Shown: positions 8,724-25,433 of the stretch, piece by piece
Position numbering within the stretch: the stretch's first letter is position 1
Layout of the letters: each line of letters opens with the position of its first letter
DNA from: Escherichia coli
Lineage (GTDB): Bacteria > Pseudomonadota > Gammaproteobacteria > Enterobacterales > Enterobacteriaceae
Assembly: GCF_050920415.1 (NCBI RefSeq)
Contig: NZ_CP169309.1
Length of the DNA stretch: 64,000 nt
Reading direction: 5' to 3' (one strand)
The notes under the pieces: model-generated
Databases searched by the model: none
What the model saw: the letters and a program-made list of their open reading frames with translations, nothing else
Told to the model about the DNA's origin: nothing
Made by a program: the position numbers and the translations under genes

Positions 8724-9224
8724 ATGACAGAATCAACATCCCGTCGCCCGGCATATGCTCGCCTGTTGGATCGTGCGGTACGCATTCTGGCGGTGCGCGA
8801 TCACAGTGAGCAAGAACTGCGGCGTAAACTCGCGGCACCGATTATGGGCAAAAATGGCCCGGAAGAGATTGATGCCACGGTAGAAGATTACGAGCGTGTT
8901 ATTGCCTGGTGCCATGAACATGGCTATCTCGATGACAGCCGATTTGTTGCGCGCTTTATCGCCAGCCGTAGCCGCAAAGGTTATGGACCTGCGCGTATTC
9001 GTCAGGAACTGAATCAGAAAGGTATTTCCCGCGAAGCGACAGAAAAAGCGATGCGTGAATGTGACATCGACTGGTGCGCACTGGCGCGCGATCAGGCGAC
9101 GCGAAAATATGGCGAACCTTTGCCAACTGTCTTTTCAGAAAAAGTTAAGATCCAGCGTTTTCTGCTCTATCGCGGCTATCTGATGGAGGATATCCAGGAT
9201 ATTTGGCGAAATTTTGCCGACTGA
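8724..9224 (+). CDS. recX: RecA regulator RecX
   Basis: 166 aa ORF immediately downstream of recA. Confidence 0.9.
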
Positions 9225-9351: not shown

Positions 9352-11982
9352 ATGAGCAAGAGCACCGCTGAGATCCGTCAGGCGTTTCTCGACTTTTTCC
9401 ATAGTAAGGGACATCAGGTAGTTGCCAGCAGCTCCCTGGTACCCCATAACGACCCAACTTTGTTGTTTACCAACGCCGGGATGAACCAGTTCAAGGATGT
9501 GTTCCTTGGGCTCGACAAGCGTAATTATTCCCGCGCTACCACTTCCCAACGCTGCGTGCGTGCGGGTGGTAAACACAACGACCTGGAAAACGTCGGTTAC
9601 ACCGCGCGTCACCATACCTTCTTCGAAATGCTGGGCAACTTCAGCTTCGGCGACTATTTCAAACACGATGCCATTCAGTTTGCATGGGAACTGCTGACCA
9701 GTGAAAAATGGTTTGCCCTGCCGAAAGAGCGTCTGTGGGTTACCGTCTATGAAAGCGACGACGAAGCCTACGAAATCTGGGAAAAAGAAGTAGGGATCCC
9801 GCGCGAACGTATTATTCGCATCGGCGATAACAAAGGTGCGCCATACGCATCTGACAACTTCTGGCAGATGGGTGACACTGGTCCGTGTGGCCCGTGCACC
9901 GAAATCTTCTACGATCATGGCGACCACATTTGGGGTGGCCCTCCGGGAAGTCCGGAAGAAGACGGCGACCGTTACATTGAGATTTGGAACATCGTCTTCA
10001 TGCAGTTCAACCGCCAGGCAGATGGCACGATGGAACCGCTGCCGAAGCCGTCTGTAGATACCGGTATGGGTCTGGAGCGTATTGCTGCGGTGTTGCAACA
10101 CGTTAACTCTAACTATGACATTGACCTGTTCCGCACGCTGATCCAGGCAGTAGCGAAAGTCACTGGCGCGACCGATCTGAGCAATAAATCACTGCGCGTA
10201 ATCGCTGACCACATTCGTTCTTGTGCGTTCCTGATCGCGGATGGCGTAATGCCGTCCAACGAAAACCGTGGTTATGTACTGCGTCGTATCATTCGTCGCG
10301 CAGTGCGTCACGGCAATATGCTGGGCGCGAAAGAAACTTTCTTCTACAAACTGGTTGGTCCGCTGATCGACGTTATGGGCTCTGCGGGTGAAGACCTGAA
10401 ACGCCAGCAGGCACAGGTTGAGCAGGTGCTGAAGACTGAAGAAGAACAGTTTGCCCGCACTCTGGAGCGCGGTCTGGCGCTGCTGGACGAAGAGCTGGCG
10501 AAACTTTCTGGCGATACGCTGGATGGCGAAACTGCTTTCCGTCTGTACGACACCTACGGTTTCCCAGTTGACCTGACGGCTGATGTTTGTCGTGAACGCA
10601 ACATCAAAGTTGACGAAGCTGGTTTTGAAGCAGCAATGGAAGAGCAGCGTCGTCGTGCGCGCGAAGCCAGCGGCTTTGGTGCCGATTACAACGCAATGAT
10701 CCGTGTTGACAGTGCATCTGAATTTAAAGGCTATGACCATCTGGAACTGAACGGCAAAGTGACTGCGCTGTTTGTTGATGGTAAAGCGGTTGATGCCATC
10801 AATGCAGGCCAGGAAGCGGTAGTCGTGCTGGATCAAACGCCATTCTATGCGGAATCTGGCGGTCAGGTTGGCGATAAAGGCGAACTGAAAGGCGTTAACT
10901 TCTCCTTTGCGGTGGAAGATACGCAGAAATACGGCCAGGCGATTGGTCACATCGGTAAACTTGCTGCGGGTTCTCTGAAAGTGGGCGACGCGGTGCAGGC
11001 TGATGTTGATGAGGCTCGTCGCGCTCGTATTCGTCTGAATCACTCCGCAACGCACCTGATGCACGCTGCGCTGCGCCAGGTTTTGGGTACTCATGTATCG
11101 CAGAAAGGTTCACTGGTTAACGACAAAGTGCTGCGCTTCGACTTCTCACACAACGAAGCGATGAAACCAGAAGAGATTCGTGCGGTTGAAGACCTGGTGA
11201 ACGCGCAGATTCGCCGTAACTTGCCGATCGAAACCAACATCATGGATCTCGAAGCGGCGAAAGCGAAAGGTGCGATGGCTCTGTTTGGCGAGAAGTATGA
11301 TGAGCGCGTACGCGTGCTGAGCATGGGCGATTTCTCCACCGAGCTGTGTGGCGGTACTCACGCAAGCCGCACCGGTGATATTGGTCTGTTCCGCATCATC
11401 TCTGAATCGGGTACTGCTGCAGGTGTTCGTCGTATCGAAGCGGTAACCGGAGAAGGCGCTATCGCCACCGTTCATGCAGACAGCGATCGCTTAAGCGAAG
11501 TCGCACATCTGTTGAAAGGCGATAGCAATAATCTGGCTGATAAAGTGCGCTCAGTACTGGAACGTACGCGTCAGCTGGAAAAAGAGTTACAACAGCTTAA
11601 AGAACAAGCTGCCGCACAGGAGAGCGCAAATCTTTCCAGTAAGGCAATTGATGTTAATGGTGTTAAGCTGTTGGTTAGCGAGCTTAGCGGTGTTGAGCCG
11701 AAAATGTTGCGTACCATGGTTGACGATTTAAAAAATCAGCTGGGGTCGACAATTATCGTGCTGGCAACGGTAGCCGAAGGTAAGGTTTCTCTGATTGCAG
11801 GCGTATCTAAGGACGTCACAGATCGTGTGAAAGCAGGGGAACTGATTGGTATGGTCGCTCAGCAGGTGGGCGGCAAGGGTGGTGGACGTCCTGACATGGC
11901 GCAAGCCGGTGGTACGGATGCTGCGGCCTTACCTGCAGCGTTAGCCAGTGTGAAAGGCTGGGTCAGCGCGAAATTGCAATAA
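9352..11982 (+). CDS. alaS: alanyl-tRNA synthetase
   Basis: 876 aa ORF; class II aaRS; synteny. Confidence 0.95.
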
Positions 11983-12216
11983 TATAAGCGTCAGGCAATG
12001 CCGTGGACTCGCTTCACGGCATTCGCATTAACGCTATCGACAACGATAAAGTCAGGTTGAAGTTGTGTATATCGGCTAAACTTAGGTTTAACAGAATGTA
12101 ATGCCATGACTGCTTACATGTAATGTGTTTGTCATTGCTTACTTTTTGGCGTTATATGATGGATAATGCCGGGATACAGAGAGACCCGACTCTTTTAATC
12201 TTTCAAGGAGCAAAGA

Positions 12217-12402
12217 ATGCTGATTCTGACTCGTCGAGTTGGTGAGACCCTCATGATTGGGGATGAGGTCACCGTGACAGTTTTAGGGGTAAAGGGCAAC
12301 CAGGTACGTATTGGCGTAAATGCCCCGAAGGAAGTTTCTGTTCACCGTGAAGAGATCTACCAGCGTATCCAGGCTGAAAAATCCCAGCAGTCCAGTTACT
12401 AA
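12217..12402 (+). CDS. csrA: carbon storage regulator CsrA
   Basis: 61 aa [48 protein letters not shown]. Confidence 0.97.
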
Positions 12403-12409
12403 TCTTTCC

Positions 12410-12435
12410 GCGTCTCATCTTTATCGGTGAGACGC
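12410..12435 (+). terminator. hairpin downstream of csrA (possible terminator)
   Basis: gcgtctca / tgagacgc 8-bp stem; no strong U-run. Confidence 0.35.
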
Positions 12436-12626
12436 ACCCTCAAAATTCCTCCTTCACTCCATTGTTTTTTCGCTTTACTCCCGTTCATTCAACTTTAGTC
12501 TCCATTTTTTGCATTACTGCTATCTGTCAGACCTCCGTTTTTCTGTTGATAAAACACTCTTTTTGACGTTTTTACAGACTAATTGAGCGTGAAGTGTGCA
12601 AACGATAAAAGTGTGGGAAAAATTGT

Positions 12627-12654
12627 TTGACTTATAAGTCTCAGAAAGTAATAT
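12627..12654 (+). promoter_or_regulatory. candidate sigma70 promoter of serV-arg tRNA operon
   Basis: ttgact, 16-bp spacer, taatat, then GC-rich discriminator gcgccacgc. Confidence 0.5.
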
Positions 12655-12716
12655 GTGCGCCACGCAGCGACGATGAGCGATAAACAAGTTCTTCGAAGCA
12701 CTCGTAAGAGGCGTGT

Positions 12717-12809
12717 GGTGAGGTGGCCGAGAGGCTGAAGGCGCTCCCCTGCTAAGGGAGTATGCGGTCAAAAGCTGCATCCGGGGTTCGAATCCCCGCC
12801 TCACCGCCA
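12717..12809 (+). tRNA. serV: tRNA-Ser (anticodon GCU)
   Basis: 93-nt cloverleaf with long variable arm, anticodon GCT, 3' CCA encoded. Confidence 0.95.
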
Positions 12810-12812
12810 TTT

Positions 12813-12889
12813 GCATCCGTAGCTCAGCTGGATAGAGTACTCGGCTACGAACCGAGCGGTCGGAGGTTCGAATCCTCCCGGATGCACCA
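12813..12889 (+). tRNA. argV: tRNA-Arg (anticodon ACG), copy 1
   Basis: 77 nt gcatccgtagctcagctggatagagtactcggctacgaaccgagcggtcggaggttcgaatcctcccggatgcacca. Confidence 0.95.
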
Positions 12890-13088
12890 TATTCTACGAA
12901 ATCTTCAGCGATGAAGGTGTCGAAGAGGTGGCGGTACTAACTGCAAGCACCAGGGAGGATAACGTTGCTTTAGCAACGGCCCGAAGGGCGAGCCGTAAGG
13001 CGAGTAATCCTCCCGGATGCACCATCTCTTACTTGATACGGCTTTAGTAGCGGTATCAAAAAATCTGCAGTAAAGTAAGTTTCCCGAT

Positions 13089-13165
13089 GCATCCGTAGCT
13101 CAGCTGGATAGAGTACTCGGCTACGAACCGAGCGGTCGGAGGTTCGAATCCTCCCGGATGCACCA
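13089..13165 (+). tRNA. argY: tRNA-Arg (anticodon ACG), copy 2
   Basis: Identical 77-nt sequence. Confidence 0.95.
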
Positions 13166-13362
13166 TATTCTACGAAATCTTCAGCGATGAAGGTGTCGAA
13201 GAGGTGGCGGTACTAACCGCAAGCACCAGGGAGGATAACGTTGCTTTAGCAACGGCCCGAAGGGCGAGCCGTAAGGCGAGTAATCCTCCCGGATGCACCA
13301 TCTCTTACTTGATACGGCTTTAGTAGCGATATCGATATCAGCAGTAAAATAAATTTCCCGAT

Positions 13363-13439
13363 GCATCCGTAGCTCAGCTGGATAGAGTACTCGGCTACGA
13401 ACCGAGCGGTCGGAGGTTCGAATCCTCCCGGATGCACCA
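13363..13439 (+). tRNA. argZ: tRNA-Arg (anticodon ACG), copy 3
   Basis: Identical 77-nt sequence. Confidence 0.95.
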
Positions 13440-13637
13440 TATTCTCCGAAATCTTCAGCAATGAAGATATCGAAGAGGTAGCGGAATTAACCGCAGGCAC
13501 CAGGAGGGATAACGTTGCGCCAGCAACGGCCCGAAGGGCGAGCCGCAAGGCGAGTAATCCTCCCGGATGCACCATCTCTTACTTGATATGGCTTTAGTAG
13601 CGGTATCAATATCAGCAGTAAAGTAAGTTCTCCCGAT

Positions 13638-13714
13638 GCATCCGTAGCTCAGCTGGATAGAGTACTCGGCTACGAACCGAGCGGTCGGAGGTTCGAATCC
13701 TCCCGGATGCACCA
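13638..13714 (+). tRNA. argQ: tRNA-Arg (anticodon ACG), copy 4
   Basis: Identical 77-nt sequence. Confidence 0.95.
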
Positions 13715-13994
13715 TATTCTCCGTAATCTTCAGCGATGATGGTATGGAAGAGGCGATGGTAATCACCGTCTGCTCCAGGGAGGATAACGTTGCGGCAGCA
13801 ACGGCCCGAAGGGCGAACGCCAGTGAGTCATCCTCCCGGATGCACCATCTTCTCCAAAAAATCCCCTTCAAAAATATCTCATTTCTAAATAGCTACTTTA
13901 TCCATTTCCTGAATATTCTTCTCCTTCGCCATCAGCGACAAAATCAAGCAATTACGCTAAAGTAGCGTCATATTTTTCGACTTGCGAGAAGACC

Positions 13995-14561
13995 ATGTAC
14001 GAGCGTTATGCAGGTTTAATTTTTGATATGGATGGCACAATCCTGGATACGGAGCCTACGCACCGTAAAGCGTGGCGCGAAGTATTAGGACACTATGGTC
14101 TTCAGTACGATGTTCAGGCGATGATTGCGCTTAATGGCTCGCCCACGTGGCGCATTGCTCAGGCGATTATTGAACTGAATCAGGCCGATCTCGACCCGCA
14201 TGCGCTGGCGTGTGAAAAAACAGAAGCAGTCAGAAGCATGTTACTCGATAGCGTCGAACCACTCCCCCTTGTTGAAGTGGTGAAAAGCTGGCACGGACGT
14301 CGACCAATGGCTGTAGGAACGGGGAGTGAAAGCGCCATCGCTGAGGCACTGCTAACGCACCTGGGATTACGCTGTTATTTTGACGCCGTCGTTGCTGCCG
14401 ATCACGTCAAACATCATAAACCTGCGCCAGACACATTTTTGTTGTGCGCGCAGCGTATGGGCGTGCAACCAACGCAGTGTGTGGTCTTTGAAGATGCCGA
14501 TTTCGGTATTCAGGCGGCCCGTGCTGCAGGCATGGACGCTGTGGATGTTCGCTTGCTGTGA
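13995..14561 (+). CDS. yqaB: HAD-family sugar phosphatase (fructose-1-phosphate phosphatase)
   Basis: 188 aa; DMDGT HAD motif I. Confidence 0.9.
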   Translation: MYERYAGLIFDMDGTILDTEPTHRKAWREVLGHYGLQYDVQAMIALNGSPTWRIAQAIIELNQADLDPHALACEKTEAVRSMLLDSVEPLPLVEVVKSWHGRRPMAVGTGSESAIAEALLTHLGLRCYFDAVVAADHVKHHKPAPDTFLLCAQRMGVQPTQCVVFEDADFGIQAARAAGMDAVDVRLL

Positions 14562-14986
14562 GTGAAGTTTTATCGCTTTTCTCGTTGTTTGCCAGTAGTT
14601 TCCTCAGCGCTACACTATTACCCGGTAATTCCGAAGTCGTGCTGGTTGCAATGTTGCTTTCCGGGGTAAGTCATCCCTGGGTTTTAGTTTTAACAGCAAC
14701 AATGGGTAATAGCCTTGGAGGGTTAACTAACGTTATCCTTGGGCGTTTCTTTCCATTGCGTAAAACATCGCGCTGGCAAGAGAAAGCTACCGGCTGGCTG
14801 AAACGCTATGGTGCAGTCACGCTATTATTAAGCTGGATGCCCGTGGTTGGCGATTTACTGTGTCTGTTAGCGGGATGGATGCGCATCTCCTGGGGGCCAG
14901 TAATCTTTTTTTTGTGCCTTGGTAAAGCGTTACGTTATGTTGCAGTTGCAGCAGCGACCGTTCAGGGCATGATATGGTGGCACTAA
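14558..14986 (+). CDS. yqaA: DedA/SNARE-associated family inner membrane protein
   Basis: 142 aa hydrophobic ORF overlapping yqaB stop. Confidence 0.85.
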   Translation: MSEVLSLFSLFASSFLSATLLPGNSEVVLVAMLLSGVSHPWVLVLTATMGNSLGGLTNVILGRFFPLRKTSRWQEKATGWLKRYGAVTLLLSWMPVVGDLLCLLAGWMRISWGPVIFFLCLGKALRYVAVAAATVQGMIWWH

Positions 14987-15031
14987 TTGTAGGCCTGCAC
15001 ACATGGTCACCATTACAGTTATGCTAATTAA

Positions 15032-16615
<1,584 letters not shown>

Positions 16616-16621
16616 CAGAAA

Positions 16622-16696
16622 AGAAAAAGGCCACTCGTGAGTGGCCAAAATTTCATCTCTGAATTCAGGGATGATGATAACAAATGCGCGTCTTTC
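16622..16696 (-). ncRNA. micA: sRNA MicA (SraD), sigmaE-dependent regulator of ompA
   Basis: Reverse complement reads gaaagacgcgcatttgttatcatcatccctgaattcagagatgaaattttggccactcacgagtggcctttttc, with terminal hairpin and U-run. Confidence 0.9.
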
Positions 16697-25242: not shown

Positions 25243-25351
25243 TATTTTTGTTCATCAGGTGATGATTAAGCTGGAAATCAATAATAGCGGATGTTGATGA
25301 ATATGGGATGAAAGATAGATTGTTGAAATGTGCGGTGTGGTTTGTAGACAT

Positions 25352-25423
25352 GATAAGACGCGCCAGCGTCGCATCAGGCATTGTGTACAGAGCGGCGGAT
25401 GAGGCAAAAACGCCTTATCCGCC
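25352..25423. repeat. pair of REP-like palindromic units between ygaY and proX
   Basis: gataagacgcgccagcgtcgcatcaggca and gcggcggatgaggcaaaaacgccttatccgcc. Confidence 0.55.
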
Positions 25424-25433
25424 CGAGTAAAAA

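Follow-up and report, generated by a model that had tools for sequence, protein, structure and literature searches.

Spacer elements of the Escherichia coli serV-argVYZQ operon are tRNA-linked repeats, probably a shortened form of the RtT type

How does the 3' end of a tRNA come to be repeated after every gene of a tRNA array, and what are the sequences that carry these repeated ends? The window analysed here, a 64-kb stretch of E. coli DNA that is 100% identical to E. coli MFDS1022581, raises this question at the tRNA operon between csrA and yqaB (gene order alaS-csrA-serV-argVYZQ-yqaB). RefSeq annotates nothing in the arg spacers, either in the record of the window strain or in K-12, and an Rfam scan of the whole window at the gathering threshold returns tRNAs, MicA and naRNA4 alone. 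Because they are unannotated in RefSeq, the spacer elements are easily mistaken for something new. They belong to a known and named family, the tRNA-linked repeats (TLRs), so that the finding as such is already known, and we consider them very probably to be shortened TLRs of the RtT type. Four folded and conserved elements are thus left out of the RefSeq annotation while scoring just under the Rfam threshold for RtT, which is mainly a point of annotation.

The array consists of four tRNA-Arg(ACG) genes that are 100% identical over 77 nt, with start-to-start distances of 276, 274 and 275 bp. The initial annotation had described four identical 77-nt genes recurring every 274-276 bp, and ARAGORN, Rfam and the spacing all bear this out. 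Each long spacer is composed of a module of 133-135 nt, which begins directly behind the tRNA CCA and runs as far as the pseudo-CCA, and of a part B of 62-64 nt that leads to the next tRNA. The features of the locus are as follows.

12627..12654, + strand, candidate sigma-70-like promoter (TTGACT-16-TAATAT) upstream of serV; consensus scan, single match, not above shuffled background
12717..12809, + strand, serV, tRNA-Ser(GCU), first gene of the operon; ARAGORN, Rfam, RefSeq annotation of the identical record
12813..12889, + strand, argV, tRNA-Arg(ACG) copy 1; ARAGORN, Rfam, RefSeq annotation
12890..13024, + strand, TLR module 1, 135 nt, counterpart of K-12 raV; fold, RtT 31.5 bits, 19-mer, alignment with K-12 spacer 1
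13025..13088, + strand, spacer part B1, 64 nt, leader of the next tRNA; spacer comparison
13089..13165, + strand, argY, tRNA-Arg(ACG) copy 2; ARAGORN, Rfam
13166..13300, + strand, TLR module 2, 135 nt, K-12 being without a module here; fold, 19-mer, RtT 30.6 bits
13301..13362, + strand, spacer part B2, 62 nt; spacer comparison
13363..13439, + strand, argZ, tRNA-Arg(ACG) copy 3; ARAGORN, Rfam
13440..13574, + strand, TLR module 3, 135 nt, counterpart of K-12 raZ; fold, 19-mer, RtT 34.7-43.9 bits
13575..13637, + strand, spacer part B3, 63 nt; spacer comparison
13638..13714, + strand, argQ, tRNA-Arg(ACG) copy 4; ARAGORN, Rfam
13715..13847, + strand, TLR module 4 (trailing), 133 nt, counterpart of K-12 raQ; fold, 19-mer, RtT 27.9 bits
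13954..13978, + strand, terminator-like candidate, a weak hairpin with a T-run in the interval between array and yqaB; consensus scan, not above shuffled background

Neither the promoter-like site at serV nor the terminator-like site before yqaB exceeds the shuffled background of the consensus scan, and the same scan found no terminator inside any of the four modules. Two minus-strand tRNA-Arg(TCG) calls of ARAGORN (12833-12904 and 13109-13180) overlap the real genes in antisense and were rejected as artefacts.

The repeated end is the 19-mer ATCCTCCCGGATGCACCAT, which has eight exact copies in the 64-kb window, with a chance expectation of 0. Four of these are the true 3' ends of the tRNA-Arg genes and the other four are the pseudo-ends, all exact and on the + strand.

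13007-13025, + strand, pseudo-end of module 1 (13007-13024 plus the T at 13025)
13283-13301, + strand, pseudo-end of module 2
13557-13575, + strand, pseudo-end of module 3
13830-13848, + strand, pseudo-end of module 4

A hairpin, CGTTGC-N4-GCAACG, lies about 28 nt upstream of every pseudo-end (first copy at 12963-12978). A hairpin and a copy of the tRNA 3' end after each gene, the last one included, had been noticed before, and the four exact pseudo-ends agree with it. In detail, the motif 'taatcc' proposed for them applies to units 1-3, but the last unit has 'tcatcc' (gtCatcc, not gtAatcc); the bases directly 5' of the pseudo-end are gagtA in units 1-3 and gagtC in unit 4.

All four modules are predicted to fold far more stably than their shuffled controls, with z-scores of -5.4, -6.0, -4.8 and -2.3 for modules 1-4. 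In module 1, two 5' hairpins are followed by a closing helix, P1, in which GCACCAGGGAGGAT pairs with ATCCTCCCGGATGC. P1 is a helix of 13 bp between GCACCAGGGAGGAU and the pseudo-end AUCCUCCCGGAUGC, which leaves ACCA single-stranded, and it encloses three hairpins (CGTTGC-N4-GCAACG, GCCC-GAA-GGGC and GCC-GUAA-GGC). Read directly against the acceptor and T-stem 5' strands of the tRNA (GCATCCG+GGAGG), the 5' strand of P1 matches at 10 of 12 positions. Since its 5' strand corresponds to this extent to the two tRNA strands joined together, the module looks like an acceptor/T minihelix that ends in ACCA, with three hairpins in the place of the T-loop, as far as its sequence can tell. The pseudo-end forms one strand, the 3' one, of a folded and conserved module and is not a stray scar of duplication. 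The initial annotation had taken the units to be generated by repeated duplication; the array is indeed duplicated, modules 1 and 2 being identical at 134 of 135 positions, but the pseudo-end did not arise as a side effect of that duplication; it is the hallmark of a pre-existing named family that is also found after single tRNAs, 5S rRNA and tmRNA. Module 4 is the most diverged, with 110 of 135 positions identical to module 1.

A TLR is defined by its 3'-terminal 18-19 bp, in which the 3' end of the preceding tRNA or rRNA recurs unchanged (PMC8144298). TLRs were first described in 1978 by Egan & Landy, and the catalogue of Rudd 1999 has 22 of them, at 10 loci of K-12, both works as far as they are cited in PMC8144298. 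The sole TLRs that have been studied are the 5S-linked rrA, rrB and rrF (PMC8144298). The elements of the arg operon are already named, since the strain table of that paper lists a deletion of raQ/Z/V with argY/Z/Q; these are among the deletions of its 'delta-22 TLRs' strain (PMC8144298). In the window, the first base of every module directly follows the CCA of a tRNA-Arg gene; the modules lie on the + strand inside serV-argVYZQ, and none of the four deviates from ATCCTCCCGGATGCACCAT in its copy. Window modules 1, 3 and 4 can be aligned with the K-12 spacers that follow argV, argZ and argQ, and the likeness to raV, raZ and raQ comprises the same locus, the position after tRNA-Arg, the 18-19-bp hallmark and a base-for-base alignment. 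The differences are that K-12 has a 62-nt spacer after argY where the window strain has a module, and that the sequences diverge by a few per cent. Host-matched ends are therefore no new generalisation, as they are the published hallmark of the family for E. coli. As modest additions there remain the description of the arg copies as a 5'-shortened RtT variant below the Rfam threshold and the absence of the argY module from K-12.

The assignment to the RtT type follows from a comparison of sequence and structure. RtT RNA, the product of rttR in the tyrT-tyrV operon, reportedly goes back to Bosl & Kersten 1991. In a permissive scan with the Rfam RtT model (RF00391), the four arg modules score 43.9 (34.7 for the module alone), 31.5, 30.6 and 27.9 bits with E-values of 1e-6 to 1e-2, and all four miss the gathering threshold of 45 bits, so that the whole 64-kb window contains no RtT match at that threshold. 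The four K-12 tyrT-tyrV repeats score 133-137 bits. The arg modules and the four K-12 tyrT repeats have in common the block AACGTTGC-N4-GCAACGGCCCGAAGGGCGA...GAGTAATCC, and the complete 3' core of RtT is present in the arg modules, consisting of CGTTGC-loop-GCAACG, the CCCGAAGGG hairpin, a variable hairpin, GAGTAATCC and the host 3' end. They align to model positions ~63-130 with high posterior probability and with invariant core columns. The 5' half of RtT (TGAGAA, the GAACC..GGTTCGA hairpin and the GAGCG..GCGAGA hairpin) is absent from the arg modules, in which the P1 5' strand GGGAGGAT runs straight into AACGTTGC. It is this missing half of the model that places the arg modules below the Rfam threshold and leaves them unannotated. 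The arg version thus resembles RtT in the 3' core of ~65 nt, the closing helix with the host 3' end, the location downstream of a tRNA and the tandem arrangement, and differs from it in being without model positions ~27-62, in carrying an Arg instead of a Tyr 3' end and in having two unrelated 5' hairpins.

The relationship extends to the 5S-linked TLRs. Most of the core, up to GCAACGGCCCGGAGGG, is common to the arg modules and the rrnB element rrB, in which, as a check of the sequence showed, the core AACGTTGCGAAGCAACGGCCCGGAGGG directly precedes a repetition of the 5S 3' end. RrA, RrB and RrF share the core and the copy of the host RNA 3' end and are located between the rrn terminators T1 and T2; their host is 5S rRNA, and no 5' complementary strand of the P1 type was seen on reading their sequences. 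These RNAs, which contain GGA motifs, are processed from a precursor, and mapping has placed the 3' end of RrB 3 nt beyond the repeat; in vitro, the three RNAs bind both Hfq and CsrA (PMC8144298). The tRNA-operon TLRs differ in that they are predicted not to bind CsrA.

Conservation of the fold was assessed at two distances. An Arg-type set was made up of 27 distinct modules from E. coli and from other enterobacterial assemblies (loci L027-L036), some of which are probably Salmonella, Klebsiella or Citrobacter to judge from sequence and gene order. Against the proposed structure this set is 93% paired, and in six pairs both partners have changed; P1 carries mismatches, with pair 66:123 broken in 9 of the 27 modules. 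A cross-host scan, with one genome per species and a core pattern plus a non-T base that excluded the E. coli Arg and Tyr copies, yielded 13 loci from several groups of Gammaproteobacteria. The genes upstream of these modules encode tRNA-Arg(CCG), tRNA-Lys, tRNA-Tyr, tRNA-Glu, tRNA-Ser and tmRNA, the copy linked to tRNA-Ser being degenerate, and nearly all of those cross-host modules that were scanned with the model score above the RtT threshold. Pseudo-ends match their own host at 18 of 18 positions in five hosts and at 17 of 18 in one, the match being partial for tmRNA and Arg(CCG); for the arg modules the match is 18/18 to their own host and at most 14 to other hosts.

An alignment of 13 modules linked to Tyr, Lys, Arg(CCG), Glu and tmRNA has a consensus fold that is 91% paired (80% in shuffles), with compensatory changes in 11 of 26 pairs. 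The covariation score is 0.276 versus 0.107 and is reached by none of 500 shuffles, a control that does not amount to a probability because the sequences are related, and controls with slid partners are also much lower. In P1, four pairs out of six change together with the host RNA. The arg modules are homologous to the tyrT RtT repeats and to rrB, the fold is conserved with compensatory changes, and the ends are matched to the host. That the closing helix changes along with the host RNA in distant Gammaproteobacteria, tmRNA-linked copies among them, is a further modest addition and extends the accessible literature to that degree.

Within E. coli, the array was surveyed by its length with a query of the flanks only, in 59 genomes spread down the ranking, a sample set against 5,426 complete E. 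coli genomes in all, and the patterns of spacers and tRNAs were read from representative loci fetched for each length class rather than from all 59 genomes. Array length among these genomes ranges from 495 to 1042 bp, and the fetched loci have 3-5 tRNA copies and 0-4 modules. In the following classes, L is a long spacer with a module and S a short one.

~1038-1042 bp, 9 genomes, all-long spacers as in the window
~903 bp, 19 genomes, K-12 type with L, S, L
809 bp, 1 genome (L011), L, S and a 102-nt spacer
764-775 bp, 13 genomes, three patterns: 768 bp (L010), four tRNAs with spacers L, S, S; 764 bp (ECOR29), three tRNAs with two long spacers; 775 bp (Esc10), five tRNAs with short spacers
737 bp, 1 genome (L009), L, S and a 102-nt spacer, trailing module partly deleted
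~674 bp, 5 genomes, O157 type with a degenerate 102-nt spacer
~631-635 bp, 9 genomes, all-short spacers
611 bp, 1 genome (L006), all-short spacers, trailing module partly deleted
495 bp, 1 genome (L005), three tRNAs with short spacers

The short spacers (61-64 nt) open with TCTCTTACTTGATA, the sequence that follows the pseudo-CCA in long spacers, and part B is the only spacer sequence that remains in strains of this kind. A short spacer is thus a long one minus the exact, repeat-bounded segment of ~135 nt that constitutes the module, so that the repeats are demonstrated substrates of deletion, as the initial annotation had supposed when it called the units possible recombination substrates. 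It had also anticipated variation of copy number between strains; three, four or five tRNA-Arg genes do occur together with 0-4 modules, but most of the variation of the array is presence or absence of modules rather than tRNA copy number. Some natural E. coli lack modules altogether (L028), others have the trailing one only (L007, L006) or are without the trailing one (L032). Orthologous modules at fixed positions are alike across strains, which argues that the long spacer is ancestral and that the short one probably derives from it by deletion. Modules 1 and 2, identical at 134 of 135 positions next to B parts that differ, point to a recent re-gain of module 2 or its conversion from position 1.

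Several other origins and roles can be considered for these modules. They could be a neutral by-product, made by sloppy tandem duplication or from partial copies of tRNAs, with neither constraint nor role at the level of RNA. Their dispensability in nature and in the strain listed without all 22 TLRs is in line with this, as is the decay of copies in the 102-nt O157 spacer, in the internal deletions of L006 and L009 and in a degenerate Klebsiella-like spacer 1, and no function is on record for TLRs (PMC8144298). Against it stand the occurrence of the same core and fold across groups of Gammaproteobacteria and after tRNA-Tyr, Lys, Arg, Glu and Ser, tmRNA and 5S, the compensatory changes in P1 and the hairpins, and the orthology of modules at fixed positions in different strains. 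It is the covariation across hosts that disfavours a pure neutral relic, which we regard as unlikely. The opposite reading, a trans-acting regulatory RNA, would make the arg spacer RNAs sRNAs or sponges that titrate Hfq, CsrA, tRNA-processing enzymes or RelA-type sensors, or that pair with sRNAs like 3'ETS-leuZ. Lalaouna et al. 2015 are said to have described such sponges, 3'ETS-leuZ and the ITS metZ-metW, as derived from tRNA spacers and pairing with sRNAs; PMC8144298 mentions them as well. These are comparable in being stable fragments of polycistronic tRNA precursors released by the tRNA-processing machinery; unlike the arg modules, they have neither a copy of a tRNA 3' end nor the TLR core. 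The strong fold with its tRNA-like ACCA terminus and the processing and in vitro binding of Hfq and CsrA by the 5S-linked RrA, RrB and RrF (PMC8144298) would suit a regulator, and the array adjoins csrA, perhaps by coincidence. This reading nevertheless seems quite improbable: the 19 tRNA-operon TLRs score <0.01 in a predictor of CsrA binders and the claim of a stringent-response function for rtT was retracted (PMC8144298), and a number of modules that ranges from 0 to 4 between strains would be odd for a regulator.

The repeated ends also recall site-specific integration. Tyrosine integrases that target the 3' ends of tRNA and tmRNA genes leave a displaced copy of that 3' end, and tmRNA as an integration target was reportedly treated by Williams 2002. 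The module would then be a scar or a miniature, a tiny integrated element between attL and attR. The 3' end is directly repeated from the T-loop onwards; the repeats flank a discrete insert downstream of an intact gene, as att sites do, and bound a precise indel, and modules also occur at tmRNA, a classic target. There is, however, no integrase gene nearby and no body of an element, since the insert between the repeats amounts to only ~116 bp; the hairpins of the conserved folded core show covariation of the RNA type, the same core is found at 5S rRNA, and the 5' strand complementary to the host end would be needless in an att site. Among 50,697 phage and 72,556 plasmid records searched by blastn with a module there was no genuine match, the matching records that were inspected being of chromosome size. 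The core-pattern scan of IMG/VR gave three matches, each close to the end of its locus or contig, one in a tRNA-Lys flank, one in a truncated tyrT repeat and one in a fragment of 335 bp. With neither a genuine phage or plasmid copy nor an integrase, origin from a mobile element was rejected as the main explanation, and we hold it to be very improbable. Least credible of all, to the point of being negligible, is that the modules are genes for small proteins by analogy with tpr, a protamine-like ORF within the tyrT repeats. It is true that tpr is annotated within K-12 rttR and that short ORFs exist in the arg spacers, but those of at least 20 aa occur on either strand, in mutual overlap and in overlap with the tRNA genes; the ATG frame within the module, of nine codons in unit 1 and six in unit 3, is not conserved, and substitutions follow the pattern of paired RNA. 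Coding potential was rejected on these grounds.

Under the preferred reading, shortened TLRs of the RtT type, the modules would be transcribed together with the tRNAs in the serV-argVYZQ precursor, as their position inside the operon suggests. The 3' strand of P1, which exactly reproduces the 3' strands of the T-stem and the acceptor of the tRNA together with ACCA, would pair with a 5' strand in which the acceptor 5' strand is fused to the T-stem 5' strand. The RNA would in this way present a stem like that of a tRNA minihelix with a tRNA 3' terminus and with three small hairpins at the place of the T-loop. The pseudo-end may direct 3' processing of the tRNA type, in which an endonuclease cuts just downstream and the product is trimmed to CCA, and a stable RNA of ~130 nt would be released. 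Processing of this kind at the arg pseudo-ends, alternative to that at the true ends, is proposed by analogy; the annotated 3' end of rttR coincides with the tyrT pseudo-CCA, and the mapped end of RrB is likewise close to its repeat (PMC8144298). The RNA of the arg modules presumably has no essential role: as natural genomes lack modules and a strain without all 22 TLRs is listed, any function is non-essential and could be nil. At the level of DNA, the direct repeat of 19-20 bp formed by true end and pseudo-end and the tRNA repeats of 77 bp act as substrates of deletion and duplication. Their recombination results in precise deletion, re-gain and unequal exchange, and hence in the range of 0-4 modules and of 3-5 tRNA genes among natural strains.

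TLRs have been known in stable-RNA operons for 45 years and are still unexplained. The locus offers a natural series of strains with 0 to 4 modules and 3 to 5 tRNA-Arg(ACG) genes, which is usable for measuring the effect of modules on tRNA processing and dosage and the frequency of deletion between the 19-bp repeats. In a bolder and tentative interpretation, which we think has some chance of being correct but is on balance doubtful, TLR/RtT would be an old family throughout the Gammaproteobacteria whose closing helix is re-tailored on both strands to the preceding stable RNA. The module would be a deliberate mimic of a minihelix, with the core placed exactly at the T-loop (TTCGA|ATCC), and the arg 'mini' modules would be a natural deletion variant that retains the minimal functional core. 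If so, a function that has gone unrecognised would link the modules to the enzymes acting at tRNA 3' ends (RNase P, RNase E, RNase T, CCA-adding enzyme), or else the core would be actively copied from one stable-RNA gene to another. The hosts seen so far are tRNA-Tyr, Lys, Arg(ACG), Arg(CCG) and Glu and tmRNA, with a degenerate copy after tRNA-Ser and with the 3' strand only at 5S rRNA. At other hosts, tRNA and module are separated by an intrinsic terminator, and modules of this kind can be transcribed only by read-through.

Modules of the tRNA-linked repeat type (TLR; RtT in Rfam, RF00391) also occur behind host RNAs other than tRNA-Arg, tmRNA among them. A metagenome-assembled genome of the Oceanospirillaceae (L019, like the other loci fetched for comparison numbered in its own coordinates) carries a tmRNA gene at 8832-9191, which is followed by two modules:

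L019 9235-9377, RtT/TLR module directly downstream of tmRNA (58.7 bits)
L019 9421-9562, second of the two modules downstream of tmRNA (48.3 bits)

Both end in a 13-14 nt copy of the T-arm and acceptor 3' strand of the tmRNA, without the CCA. The hosts that PMC8144298 names for these repeats do not include tmRNA.

At the edge of an IMG/VR contig (L038 12230-12712, minus strand), three modules stand in tandem behind the 3' end of a tRNA-Lys, and ahead of each lies an intrinsic terminator, made up of GCGCCTAAGGCGC and a T-run. In being placed behind a terminator, these modules resemble the 5S-linked repeat of rrnB, which lies behind T1. In K-12 the T1-T2 segment of rrnB holds the conserved hairpin core of the family with the 3' end of 5S copied behind it (L040 365-428), and numerous cloning vectors contain this segment under the name 'rrnB terminator'. 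In a further IMG/VR contig, a short one (L039 4530-4610, minus strand), the last tyrT repeat of an E. coli-like sequence is cut mid-repeat and fused to unrelated DNA, a junction that may reflect insertion into the tyrT repeat.

Within the arg arrays, modules are also found in reduced form. In O157:H7 the third and fourth tRNA-Arg genes are separated by a spacer of 102 nt (L008 1860-1961), as is likewise found in L009 and L011, and since this spacer retains a diverged first hairpin while the core and the pseudo-end (the copy of the host 3' end) are gone, it is a decayed module. The trailing module, behind the last tRNA-Arg, is internally deleted in L009 (2173-2240) and in L006 (1999-2110). The L009 deletion falls between the GCACCA hexamer that begins the 5' strand of the closing helix P1 and a second GCACCA at the pseudo-end; repeats as small as 6 bp within a module serve as deletion sites.

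In two Klebsiella-like loci (L033 and L034), spacer 1 is a degenerate module of 150 nt and a BON-domain gene separates the array from yqaB. In a Salmonella-like locus (L031), the last tRNA-Arg is followed by two modules in tandem.

In a comparison of window 11312-15350 with 5,425 E. coli genomes, the sequence on either side of the array reaches at least 99% identity in only 8 and 95-99% in every remaining genome, which places the strain in a divergent and rare E. coli lineage.

ARAGORN also reported antisense tRNAs, confined to units 1 and 2 of the array:

12833-12904, minus strand, 'tRNA-Arg(TCG)' overlapping argV and about 15 nt of the module behind it
13109-13180, minus strand, 'tRNA-Arg(TCG)' overlapping argY and about 15 nt of the module behind it

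Both are probably artefact calls to which the palindromic cloverleaf gives rise. Elsewhere in the window, three further RNA features reach the Rfam threshold:

16625-16696, minus strand, MicA sRNA
25347-25424, minus strand, naRNA4 (nucleoid-associated RNA, REP-derived)
47721-47796, plus strand, tRNA-Met(CAT)
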